From: Octopus vulgaris
Taxonomy: Eukaryota
Direction: 5' to 3'
NCBI GenBank assembly: GCA_951406725.2
Contig: OX597821.1
Coordinates: 3,038,001 to 3,102,000 of the forward strand
DNA: 64,000 nucleotides
Shown: piece by piece, positions 4,863-49,210 of the stretch
Position numbering within the stretch: position 1 is the stretch's first letter
Layout of the letters: each line of letters starts with the position of its first letter
The notes under the pieces: model-generated
Database searches by the model: none
Seen by the model: only the letters and a program-made list of their open reading frames with translations
Told to the model about the DNA's origin: nothing
Translations under genes and position numbers: made by a program

Positions 4863-5553
4863 TTTTTTTTATCTAGTTTCAGCTCACAAGCTGTGGCCAT
4901 GCTGGGACACCGCCATTTGGTGTTGCTACATGATTTTACTTCACGAATGCTTTTTAGCAATTGCCATTTGGTGCAGGAGAGTGTTCGATGCAGCTGCCCT
5001 CATCTGCACCTCCTGCCGTGAAGTTGGTTCATCTGGGACACCTGACAAGAAGAGATCCAGTTTTATTTTAAAGACATCTGCATCCACCCCATGCAGGTCT
5101 CTTAGGTTCTTCGGGAGGATATAGAAGAGCTGTGGGCCTCGGAGGCCCTGGATATCAGAGTATCTTGTCCTACATCTTGATGGAAAATTTGGAGTCCTTG
5201 GCACTCTGTAGTGGCGCCCAGTTGGGGTAGTTGTGTAACTCTCGATGCCAAAGTTTGGGACAAGACCTTCTAGGATCTTCCAGATGTATATCATGGCATA
5301 TCTTTCTCGCCTACGTTCTCTTGAGTCTTTCCCAATTTCTTATATGCTGCACAGAGGCTATCTTCTTCCTGTAGCTTCGTTGGATCGCTTCAAGTTCTGT
5401 GATTAACTTGACACTGGATAGTGACCATAGCTGAGAGCAATAGTCAAAGTGGCTTAGGACAAGTGTCCTCCAGAGGACCATCATGGTTTCCTGGTCTCTT
5501 GTTCTAAAGGTTCTATGAATCCATCCGGTCAGCCGCCTACATTTCATTGCCAA
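4862..5553 (-). mobile_element. CR1/L2-group LINE 3' end (ORF2 C-terminus and 3' UTR)
   Basis: ORFs GWIHRTFRTRD..LWRTLVLSHFDYCSQLWS..ELEAIQR and [42 protein letters not shown]; 3' stem-loop CAGCT-TGTG-AGCTG and A-rich tail. Confidence 0.9.
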
Positions 5554-5750: not shown

Positions 5751-5818
<68 letters not shown>

Positions 5819-5894
5819 GCAGCGTGGAAGGTGTTTATAAGCCATTTAAGAAACACACAAAAGCCGTTCGATTCACTCCAACATTTAAGTTTAA

Positions 5895-5944
5895 TTTGTC
5901 AAAATATTTTCGTCGCTAAAATCCGCGACCTGTTCACTGACAAA
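5895..5944 (-). ncRNA. Identical G3-C8 hammerhead-like motif in the inverted arm
   Basis: Exact reverse complement of 8063-8112. Confidence 0.7.
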
Positions 5945-6760
5945 GTCCGTGCTGCATCTAAGAAAGTAACAGTTAGTTCGTCATATATATGTACGTATGT
6001 ATGTGTGTATGTATGCATACATGTGTTTATGTATGTACGTATGCATGTACGCACATACGCCTGTGTATGCATGTATGTATGTATGTATGTATGTATGTAT
6101 GTATGTATGTATGTATGTATGTATGTATGTATATATGTATGTGTGTGTATAAGCACGCACATACACTCTATAAAACATAAAGTTATAAACCTGTAGCGAT
6201 GGATGGATGTAGAGTGACCACTCATCACAACGCTATCAAATTTCAACTCCCTACGGCCGAGGCTAGAAAGTGAATTTATGACGCTTGCTCACAAGAACTA
6301 TACCCTAAAATCTATTATCAGATTTTTATCTCTATATCACAGAACTAATGTTTTACTATTGTTCGTATGTATGTATGTATGTATGTTTGTATTCATGTGC
6401 TACGTATGTATGTGAGTGTCTAGGAGAATGGGCATATGTGTCCGTGAGAGTGTGTACATGTGTATGTGTATGTGAACGTTTGTCCGTGTACTGGCATGTA
6501 TCCGTCCAAGTTGTGTACATGACTGTTACTTTGCTGAAGGTTGTATACATATTTACATATATGTTTGTATAGACGCACACACATATATATATATGTGTGT
6601 GTGGGTGTGTGTTTGTTCCTCTCATCATCGTCTAACCGTGAATGGATACAACGCCTAGGTGCAACTGTTCGTATCAAACAACGTCTGCTCATACCGTTGT
6701 ATATAACTGCACATACGCATTGCAACCTGTATTTAAGGACTACAGGTGAAAGGGAGAGAG

Positions 6761-7042
6761 TCATATATAGGTGAGACCTCTAGAAGCATCAATGATAGGT
6801 TCAAAGAACACCTGGACAACTACATTGAAAGGAAGCCAAACTCCATCTTCTACCAACATGCTGTAGACTGCCACAAGGGATCCTTAGGGGAGCTTAAGTT
6901 GAACATCCTATCTACACATCCCACCGATGCAATGTTGAGACAGGTCACAGAAGCTGTTTGTATACAAGAATACAAACCTACTCTCAACCGAAAGTCCGAA
7001 TGGAATAACACCCAGATCCCATTCAGAAGGACTATTCTATAA
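6761..7042 (+). pseudogene. PLE GIY-YIG endonuclease, C-terminal part truncated at the YIG motif
   Basis: SYIGETSRSINDRFKEH..H..H..RQVTEAVCIQEYKPTLNRKSEW retains YIG, R, H, E and N motifs; stop-free; the GIY half is replaced by the inverted arm. Confidence 0.9.
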
Positions 7043-7583
7043 CCACCCCTCTCTCTCTCTCCCTTTCACCTGTAGTCCTTACATACAGGTTGCAATGCGT
7101 ATGTGCAGTTATATACAACGGTATGAGCAGACGTTGTTTGATACGAACAGTTGCACCTAGGCGTTGTATCCATTCACGGTTAGACGATGATGAGAGGAAC
7201 AAACACACACCCACACACATATATATATATGTGTGTGCGTCTATACAAACATATATGTAAATATGTATACAATCTTCAGCAAAGTAACAGTCATGTACAC
7301 AACTTGGACGGACACATGCCAGTACACGGACATACGTTCACATACACATACACATGTACACACTCTCACGGACACATCTGCCCATTCTCCTAGACACTCA
7401 CATACATACGTAGCACATGAATACAAACATACATACATACCTACGTATGGGCATACACACGTACATACGCACGTACATGTACACACACACATACATGGAC
7501 ACATGCATACGATCGCGTATACATACATACGCACATGCGTACGTATGTACATACATACATACATGCATACATACATACATACA

Positions 7584-7617
<34 letters not shown>

Positions 7618-8062
7618 CATATATACATACATACATACGCACATACATACATACATACGAACAATAGTAAAACATTAGTTCTGTGATATAGAGATAAAAA
7701 TCTGATAATAGATTTTAGGGTATAGTTCTTGTGAGCAAGCGTCATAAATTCACTTTCTAGCCTCGGCCATAGGGAGTTGAAATTTGATAGCGTTGTGATG
7801 AGTGGTCACTCTACATCCATCCATCGCTACAGGTTTATAACTTTATGTTTTATAGAGTGTATGTGCGTGCTTATACACACACATACATATATACATACAT
7901 ACATACATACATACATACATACATACATACATACATGCATACACAGGCGTATGTGCGTACATGCATACGTACATACATAAACACATGTATGCATACATAC
8001 ACACATACATACGTACATATATATGACGAACTAACTGTTACTTTCTTAGATGCAGCACGGAC

Positions 8063-8112
8063 TTTGTCAGTGAACAGGTCGCGGATTTTAGCGACGAAAA
8101 TATTTTGACAAA
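8063..8112 (+). ncRNA. Hammerhead-like motif with G3-C8 core (GUGAACA)
   Basis: TTTGTCA(8063-69)-GTGAACA(8070-76)-G-GTCGC-ggatttta-GCGAC-GAAAA-TA-TTT-TGACAAA(8106-12). Confidence 0.7.
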
Positions 8113-8250
8113 TTAAACTTAAATGTTGGAGTGAATCGAACGGCTTTTGTGTGTTTCTTAAATGGCTTATAAACACCTTCCACGCTGGAATTGTTTTCGT
8201 TTCAGCACACGATCTCAGATCAAATTACTTGCTATGCGAGTACATCTCCG

Positions 8251-8252
<2 letters not shown>

Positions 8253-8289
<37 letters not shown>

Positions 8290-18439: not shown

Positions 18440-18658
18440 AATATTTGTATCATCTCGTCCTTAATATATTTGAAAAGGCAATCTATTCTGCCTTTTCATT
18501 TCCTGGTATCGTTAAGAACAAATCCAGCAACTCGAAGATAATACTATTAAAATTGTTGTTAATTTTGACGAAAATATCAACACTCACTGCATAGGCTATT
18601 TGTTGATGATGGTTATGATGATGACGATGATGATGACGACGATGACGACGACGATGGC

Positions 18659-18690
<32 letters not shown>

Positions 18691-19321
18691 CGATGATGAT
18701 AAATGAAAAGGAAAAAAAAAAACATTTGCATAGGATTCCTTAAAACCGATCAGCATTGCATTTGTGGGTCACAACTCAGAACACATCTCCAGCTGTCCAC
18801 AACTCTCAAACTGTGACGAATATACAAAACCCATCCACTCATTCTATACCTCTATCCTTATTCTCTCTGTTCCTCTGTCTTTCTCTCTCTTATTCTCCTT
18901 GTACGCTCTCTCCCAACATCTCCCTTATTTCTTACTCACCTTTCCACCGCTCTCTCCCTCTCCATTTCCAGCAGTGCAAACGAATCTATCTTCTCTTCAG
19001 TTAGATACGTATTTTCACCTCCCCATTTAACATACATGAATGAGGAGGCCTTGTTTCTTATATTGTATAGCAGTTACTGATAGACATTCATGAGAGAGTT
19101 ATACTGTAAATAGGTTTCAAGAAATAAAGGGAACCCGTGCCTGAGAGGAAATGCAGTTATAATAATGTTATGATAAAGTTATGATTCAGTTAAAAGACAT
19201 ATTATGCTCACGCTATAAGACACGTGACGTAAACAAAATTTTATGTATAGAAAAAAGACTAAGGATTTATGTAACTTTAACTCACAATGTTCCTCATTTT
19301 CAAAGTCTATCTGCCACTCGC

Positions 19322-19362
<41 letters not shown>

Positions 19363-19831
19363 TGGTGTTTGTATATCTTTCAGAGACAAAATGTGTATGT
19401 GTTTGCATATATATATATGTATGTGTGTGTGTTTTGTGTGTGTATACACGTCGTTTTGAATTAGAGATAATTACATTTGAATTGGAATATTAATTTAATA
19501 ATTTCGACTTGATGAATGTAAAGAAAAAAAAAAGTTTTTGAAAAACACTACACAAACTATATAAAATATTTTGTCATTGATATCCAATATTTTCTTGCAT
19601 AAATTCTCTAAAACAAAATATTTGTATCATCTCGTCCTTAATATATTTGAAAAGGCAATCTATTCTGCCTTTTCATTTCCTGGTATCGTTAAGAACAAAT
19701 CCAGCAACTCGAAGAAATACTATTAAAATTGTTGTTAATTTTGACGAAAATATCAACACTCACTGCATATATTTGTTGATGATGGTTATGATGATGACGA
19801 TGATGATGACGACGATGACGACGACGATGGC

Positions 19832-19863
<32 letters not shown>

Positions 19864-20494
19864 CGATGATGATAAATGAAAAGGAAAAAAAAAAACATTT
19901 GCATAGGATTCCTTAAAACCGATCAGCATTGCATTTGTGGGTCACAACTCAGAACACATCTCCAGCTGTCCACAACTCTCAAACTGTGACGAATATACAA
20001 AACCCATCCACTCATTCTATACCTCTATCCTTATTCTCTCTGTTCCTCTGTCTTTCTCTCTCTTATTCTCCTTGTACGCTCTCTCCCAACATCTCCCTTA
20101 TTTCTTACTCACCTTTCCACCGCTCTCTCCCTCTCCATTTCCAGCAGTGCAAACGAATCTATCTTCTCTTCAGTTAGATACGTATTTTCACCTCCCCATT
20201 TAACATACATGAATGAGGAGGCCTTGTTTCTTATATTGTATAGCAGTTACTGATAGACATTCATGAGAGAGTTATACTGTAAATAGGTTTCAAGAAATAA
20301 AGGGAACCCGTGCCTGAGAGGAAATGCAGTTATAATAATGTTATGATAAAGTTATGATTCAGTTAAAAGACATATTATGCTCACGCTATAAGACACGTGA
20401 CGTAAACAAAATTTTATGTATAGAAAAAAGACTAAGGATTTATGTAACTTTAACTCACAATGTTCCTCATTTTCAAAGTCTATCTGCCACTCGC

Positions 20495-48904: not shown

Positions 48905-49210
48905 TTTACATTATTTATCTTTGACCGCTATTTGTCCTCATCTCGTTTGTTGTTAACACAAAGCTTCCGCTGATTTACCCTCCGTCCTTCATTAGGTGTC
49001 TTCGGTAAATTTCAAACCTAGGTTCTCATTCTTAAGATATTTTTCGAACCTAGGTTTTTGAAATTTCCCCAAGACACCTGATGAAGAAAGCTGGTGGGTA
49101 TAACAGACGAAACGTTGTGCTAACAACAAACACGATGAGGACAAATATCAGACAAATGTAAATAATATATATAATGTACATAATTCCTCATCTCTTAAAT
49201 ATAGAACTGT
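48905..49210. mobile_element. Inverted PLE pLTR pair (~48929-49025 / ~49046-49148) with degenerate HHRs
   Basis: Plus arm CAC-CTGATGA-..CTG..CAG..-GAAAC-GTT-GTG (49075-49119); decayed inverted copy at 48957-48998; ~20-nt spacer. Confidence 0.75.

Follow-up and report, generated by a model that had tools for sequence, protein, structure and literature searches.

The window, by which we mean the whole 64,000-nt stretch of DNA analysed here, carries at positions 8063–8112 a motif with the stems and core junction of a hammerhead ribozyme, in which the pair between core residues 3 and 8 is G-C in place of the consensus C-G. The locus raises the question of whether this exchange is a peculiarity of one copy or the norm of a lineage, and whether it has been retained for the structure of the RNA, for self-cleavage or for neither.

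The hammerhead motif and its host element

The motif comprises the following features.

8063–8112, + strand: minimal type I hammerhead motif of the direct arm, its core being G3-C8 (sequence, RNA folding, copy comparison)
8070–8076, + strand: core strand G3 U4 G5 A6 A7 C8 A9, with G3 at 8070 and C8 at 8075 (sequence, family counts)
8077, + strand: extra nucleotide, a G, between A9 and G10.1 (sequence; likewise G in families B, C, D and E)
8078–8095, + strand: stem II of 5 bp with an 8-nt loop II that varies by subfamily (folding, arm alignment)
8096–8105, + strand: G12-A13-A14-A15.1, palindromic helix III (8099–8104) and U17, with the predicted cut after 8105 (sequence)
5895–5944, − strand: letter-identical hammerhead of the inverted arm (sequence, folding)

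Residues are numbered by the standard hammerhead scheme, which is also used in PMC4209133. Stem I (7 bp) pairs UUUGUCA (8063–8069) with UGACAAA (8106–8112), stem II pairs GUCGC (8078–8082) with GCGAC (8091–8095), including G10.1-C11.1, and the 3′ side of the core consists of GAAA (8096–8099), the palindrome AAUAUU (8099–8104) and U17 at 8105. These elements, together with the UUU triplet and the GUGAACA core, stand in the sequence as a preliminary description of the locus had given them. Stems I and II enclose the core junction as in a type I hammerhead, and U4 G5 A6, A9, G12 A13 A14, A15.1-U16.1 and the NUH triplet are all present. Because the consensus C3 and G8 are replaced by G3 and C8, which form a Watson-Crick pair, we class the motif as a hammerhead variant. 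The 50-mer, a segment trimmed to the stems, is predicted to form both stems with an energy of −14.7 kcal/mol (z −3.4, with 1 of 200 shuffles as good), z dropping to −1.7 when 13 nt of flank are added on each side. An Rfam search of the window returned no hammerhead among the best 150 of 274 matches. Helix III is not stable in the monomer, where the 6-nt palindrome is unable to close as a 2-bp hairpin; as a duplex it is predicted to be marginal (−0.2 kcal/mol), and the best predicted dimer adopts a different, inactive pairing rather than the active one.

The motif resides in the pLTR of a Penelope-like element (PLE), a 5′-truncated copy bearing one inverted arm, which is laid out as follows.

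5815–6760, − strand: inverted, 5′-truncated arm (3′ UTR and pLTR, without tail) adjoining (TA)n (sequence comparison)
6761–7042, + strand: C-terminal piece of a GIY-YIG endonuclease, the sole ORF remnant in the window copy (ORF and domain evidence)
7043–8047, + strand: 3′ UTR with microsatellite tracts (copy comparison)
8045–8051, + strand: pile-up of short-copy 5′ ends, probably where the RNA begins within the upstream pLTR (42/126 arms)
8162–8253, + strand: first part of the element ORF, from the ATG at 8162, repeated within the pLTR; this ATG opens the RT-EN frame in tandem copies L232 and L233
8193–8253, + strand: one-sided tail of ~60 nt, then (TA)n (3′ ends cluster at 8186–8198 and 8245–8254)

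The insertion is palindromic, with (TA)n on both flanks and a tail extending to 8253 on one side only, and its direct and inverted arms are alike in 919 of 927 aligned columns. The preliminary description had observed that the core at 5895–5944 is the same as that at 8063–8112, which extends to every letter of the motif, and had concluded that the core predates the arm duplication; however, the arms were likely written in one insertion event, and their identity is therefore uninformative on age. The window copy is a dead, 5′-truncated insertion and is itself probably inert, because its two motifs have opposite orientations and the arms of a read-through RNA would anneal to each other. An identical inversion junction, with the second arm running from 8073, is shared by nine insertions (L136, L139, L173, L174, L177, L178, L182, L193 and L208), which suggests that a short palindromic derivative has multiplied as a non-autonomous unit.

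Longer copies of the family contain one long ORF with a CQSNCAVC linker and a GIY-YIG domain. In L082 the frame is open for 1,025 codons, the first of which belong to the inverted arm, and its GIY-YIG domain matches PF01541 (E 1.5e-5, 25.6 bits against a cut-off of 22.6). RT-type motifs were picked out by eye in the ORF, with no Pfam RT match at E 0.01. In the tandem copies L232 and L233, the pLTR runs into the ORF at an ATG equivalent to 8162; in-frame stops lie between the motif and this ATG, and the motif is therefore non-coding. It is located on the sense strand and occurs twice: in the upstream pLTR it forms part of the 5′ UTR, with the predicted cut site 56 nt upstream of the ORF ATG, and at the 3′ end it precedes the two element ends. 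The partial tandem pLTR, the inverted truncated copy and the one-sided tail are traits of EN+ PLEs, and CQSNCAVC, situated before the endonuclease, conforms to the CX2-5CxxC linker defined for the Neptune and Nematis clades (PMC8557442). As in these clades, a putative RT is followed by a C-terminal GIY-YIG domain, (TA)n is targeted, and copies can be inverted and 5′-truncated with a one-sided tail, although the tail of ~60 nt is longer than the 30–40 nt given in PMC8557442. Judged from sequence layout and linker, the element is an endonuclease-bearing PLE with a linker of the Neptune/Nematis type.

The 3-8 pair in family A and its relatives

The G3-C8 core is the norm of the family to which the window copy belongs (family A). 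A genome pattern search gave 6,845 exact matches to TTGTCAGTGAANAGGTCGC and none to the reversed control; matches with G3 thus number 6,845 against 209 without. C8 is present in 97 of the first 100 G3 rows, whereas C3-G8 occurs in none of the first 100 non-G3 rows, so that GTGAACA is indeed the family consensus, a point that the preliminary description had proposed to check. The best 40 DNA matches, of 1,943 candidates, are 99–100% identical, and all 30 loci that were read carry the identical 50-mer. The whole motif is present in 80 arms, taken from 126 that were anchored on the 3′ part, where U4 G5 A6, A9, G12 A13 A14, A15.1-U16.1 and the NUH columns are each conserved in 76–80 of the 80, and where 70 are G-C and the other 10 scattered variants. 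The preliminary description had held that independent variation of positions 3 and 8 among copies would speak against function; this does not follow, since the single changes are seen in dead copies, for which neutral decay predicts them. No alternative letter exceeds 2% at 8070 or 8075 in three large sequencing runs with three organism codes, a fourth run contributing one contig.

Changes at the level of subfamilies within family A fall on 5/9 columns of loop II, 22/167 columns outside stems and core and 1/42 columns of stems and core, and the lone change of the last kind, A8108G, creates a U-G wobble that preserves pairing. For the stem and core columns, Fisher tests give p 3e-4 versus loop II and p 0.05 versus all outside columns, or p 0.009 when the wobble is not counted. 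Disruptive changes number 0/42 in stems and core versus 13/142 in the UTR and ORF start (p 0.04).

Two further patterns were observed among the variants. U3-G8 occurs in 5 of 100 non-G3 rows, above the expectation from single-site rates; one example, L038, is otherwise an ordinary older copy of family A. In addition, A>G and T>C changes are found at 8069, 8094, 8160, 8168 and 8179 in three runs that we guess to be RNA. At 8160 these amount to 1,561/8,882, 224/3,921 and 1,120/6,028 in the three runs and 58/218,382 in a fourth, and they are unlisted in the large runs. The pattern looks like A-to-I editing of palindromic copies.

The swap is old, as judged from the sequences of an older sister, family E, which is also G3-C8. 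Family E is decayed (mean pairwise identity of copies 63%), yet 14/23 copies are G-C despite an A3-U8 query, and among its pattern matches 16/17 are G-C, one is C-C and none is C-G. By majority letters, E and A agree at 7/8 positions of the core strand, N7 alone differing, and at 10/10 of stem II, compared with 3/8 of loop II and 3/15 of the 5′ flank; helix III of E is a shorter palindrome. The UTR (36/50) and the ORF start (75/92) are also well kept between the two families, and part of the conservation is therefore general. No ORF pieces were found in the family E loci, and E is thus absent from the endonuclease tree described below. A putative A3-U8 family was discarded, as its 11 pattern matches resolve into decayed family E copies with G3-C8 (L298–L300), six A-type copies and two B-type copies on one contig.

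Across the homologous families the 3-8 pair takes three Watson-Crick forms, being G-C in A and E, U-A in B and C-G in C1, C2 and D, and no family with a mismatch at 3-8 was found among those compared. Families B, C1, C2 and D all carry the extra G and have compensatory changes in stem II. In B, C2 and D the motif follows an endonuclease that is mostly 37–49% identical to that of A in the longer single matches, and the tail is related; no endonuclease piece was linked to C1. Long copies of family B have AAUU as helix III, with U17. All of A, B, C, D and E retain the 3-8 pair, G12, GAAA, a palindromic helix III and the NUH triplet, whereas N7, loop II and the length of helix III vary. In eight hand-picked, related rows, 48/48 cells of stem II and the 3-8 pair are standard, with 3/6 pairs changing on both sides, and 0/500 shuffles reach the covariation of these rows. 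A metagenome scan for the motif produced one weak locus among 109 candidates, which was left out of these comparisons.

The endonuclease tree, which is unrooted, without outgroup and built from 17 single-piece fragments selected by length from 55 loci, separates A+B from C2+D at 100/99. The nearest family to A on this tree that is not G3-C8 is B, with U3-A8, and a stepwise route to G3-C8 via U-A is possible from these sequences. Selection on ribozyme function had originally been suggested from two transversions that preserve the pair. The part concerning selection gains support at the level of RNA structure, from the covariation across families and from subfamily changes that avoid stems and core; a direct jump by two transversions is, however, unneeded, given the U3-A8 neighbour.

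Comparison with known hammerheads and the copy-end test

Minimal hammerhead ribozymes (min-HHRs) are known in the pLTRs of metazoan PLEs (Cervera and de la Pena 2014, PMC4209133). The motif described here resembles them in its place within the pLTR and on the ORF strand, in the extra nucleotide after A9, in G10.1-C11.1, in the short palindromic helix III, and in the many lone or opposite-strand copies. The extra G and the weak stem III, from which the preliminary description had suggested slow or dimer-dependent cleavage, are thus ordinary, both the additional nucleotide and the short palindrome being conserved traits of PLE hammerheads (PMC4209133). Stem I is longer here (7 bp), and the combination of purine 3 and pyrimidine 8 goes unmentioned in the portions consulted of that study, which does report a U3-A8 variant in Schistosoma mansoni. 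Natural U3-A8 hammerheads with 3-8 covariation were also described by Perreault et al. 2011 (PMC3088659); natural covariation is shared with our families, but those hammerheads keep pyrimidine 3 and purine 8, and no G3-C8 is named in the part consulted.

The closest counterpart of the G3-C8 core is an engineered one. In the hammerhead of PAc (Poseidon) from Anolis carolinensis, C3G or G8C abolishes cleavage and C3G/G8C, the same core as in family A, partly restores it (PMC11167929). Similarly, a full double-mutant scan found the G:C swap to be the sole rescue in the CUGA region (PMC9901934), a review states that C3G partly rescues G8C (PMC8495972), and G3-C8 appears as an engineered variant in PMC3884650. 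The swap is thus not a new mechanism, as it works in the laboratory and U3-A8 is known in nature. In both PAc and the present element, the hammerhead is close to the ORF start and the tail lies between two element ends. They differ in that G3-C8 is natural here and a laboratory mutant there, that the ATG follows the cut by 56 nt here whereas the ORF of PAc begins from stem II, and that the protein here has a zinc-finger-like linker. Cleavage of the anole hammerhead requires the protein of the element, and the template is mainly RNA that has not been cut (PMC11167929). The PLE hammerheads described in the literature cleave very slowly in vitro (PMC4209133, PMC11167929). Slow or dimer-dependent cleavage of the family A motif is plausible.

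The literature searched contained engineered cases of G3-C8 and no natural one, although a natural case may be in print elsewhere. A large survey of such PLE hammerhead variants was reportedly made by Lunse et al. in 2017. The portions consulted of PMC6765202, PMC6155905, PMC2920678, PMC11014351 and bioRxiv 10.64898/2026.07.22.740005 added nothing on a natural G3-C8.

If cut RNA were copied by reverse transcription, 5′ ends would be expected to pile up at 8106. No such pile-up is present: 3/126 arms start at 8104–8106, 42 start at 8045–8051 and five reach beyond 8040, in a sample made up largely of short copies from one contig, with alignment artefacts accounting for some of the starts at 8051 and 8063. 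In the genome-wide pattern rows, starts at 8106, 8107 and 8109 number 54, 16 and 79, of which ~32, 10 and 29 junctions are left after sorting by eye, which removed variants, internal deletions and stem I microhomologies; 7-nt microhomology with stem I accounts for 16 of the 54 rows at 8106, and one-base microhomologies blur the remainder.

The 5′ ends of the short copies at 8045–8051 lie 15 nt before the motif. Family-wide, the letters of 8030–8051 resemble an initiator-like start, and equally a 3′ splice site with its branch point, pyrimidine tract and AG. We rejected the idea that a first exon is spliced on before 8050, as arms starting there have no upstream sequence in common. Copies of family B often begin at a similar distance before their motif.

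Readings of the G3-C8 core

Selection on RNA structure is supported as the best reading of the 3-8 pattern in these sequences. What the conserved pairing points to is selection on structure, not on catalysis. Nevertheless, we consider it rather probable that the minimal type I hammerhead of this abundant PLE pLTR, with its lineage-wide G3-C8 pair, still cleaves after U17, at a low rate and probably just in dimeric form or when aided by the protein of the element. Selection would then maintain the 3-8 pairing rather than the letters, because catalysis uses the 2′-OH at position 8 while its base pairs with position 3. Transcription would start near 8048 in the upstream pLTR, and reverse transcription would be initiated internally, at the two 3′ ends, with uncut RNA as its template. 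Priming in the upstream pLTR may give rise to the thousands of short copies, and downstream priming to longer copies such as that in the window. Both routes would need an uncut motif. This would suit a ribozyme that is slow and gated by dimerization or by protein: rapid cleavage would destroy the template, whereas weak, gated cleavage would be tolerated, including that by a partly active G3-C8 core.

The fold could instead be kept for a non-catalytic role, as a binding or folding signal for the protein of the element, a promoter or a 5′-end element, and no longer cut. The copy ends, which bear no footprint of cutting, and the start of the motif 15 nt past the 5′-end pile-up are in line with this, PMC4209133 allows roles other than cleavage, and in the anole element HHR mutants are without effect on insertion in vitro (PMC11167929). 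We nevertheless regard this reading as unlikely, since what families A to E keep (the 3-8 pair, G12, GAAA, the palindromic helix III and NUH) is the catalytic set, beyond what the fold demands; the features that vary are N7, loop II and the length of helix III. Still less likely is a fixed accident, in which a successful retrotransposon lineage would have a dead or neutral motif as a passenger. Because whole elements are copied, thousands of identical copies amount to a single event, Naiad PLEs do well in the absence of canonical hammerheads (PMC8557442), and the excess conservation of stems and core over UTR and ORF start is modest. Yet G3-C8 was kept from A to the much older E while the neighbouring loop II and 5′ flank diverged, and three different Watson-Crick pairs occupy 3-8 in homologous families, none of those found being mismatched.

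A constraint on letters 3 and 8 from an overlapping protein-coding frame has a precedent in the anole element, whose ORF begins inside the hammerhead (PMC11167929), and an ATG is present at 8050. The main ORF, however, begins at 8162 downstream of the in-frame stops, on which grounds we rejected this explanation, and the short frame from 8050 shifts among subfamilies through a one-base indel near 8061–8062, which makes coding constraint most improbable.

Returning to the preferred reading of a slow, gated hammerhead, we advance tentatively, as a possibility short of an even chance, that these sequences represent an unreported natural G3-C8 lineage: a single PLE radiation would have moved the 3-8 pair through C-G, U-A and G-C and held G-C for long and through thousands of insertions, the weakened core serving as a slow, dimer- or protein-gated switch. 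The natural homologous series C-G, U-A and G-C, in old and young families, offers phylogenetic support for a selected geometry of the catalytic type, and it supplies ready natural test constructs for the function of PLE hammerheads. Searches fixed on CUGANGA undercount, the 6,845 matches of family A comparing with 4,941 for one canonical-core pattern, which had 626 matches in its control and covers one helix III spacing only. If the reading is correct, such searches overlook a hammerhead family that may outnumber all others in the genome.

Other repeats were noted in the window. An open frame at 4941–5339 (− strand) bears a likeness to the 3′-terminal part of a LINE-type ORF, and sequence similar to it precedes the element in L232. 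Positions 2034–2613 contain another short inverted pair, with 171-nt arms that are 98% complementary, and 18440–18827 and 19617–20000 form a tandem duplication of ~1.17 kb. A hammerhead-like motif with a canonical core at 49078 (+ strand) belongs to another repeat family and is like one common family among the matches to the canonical-core pattern.
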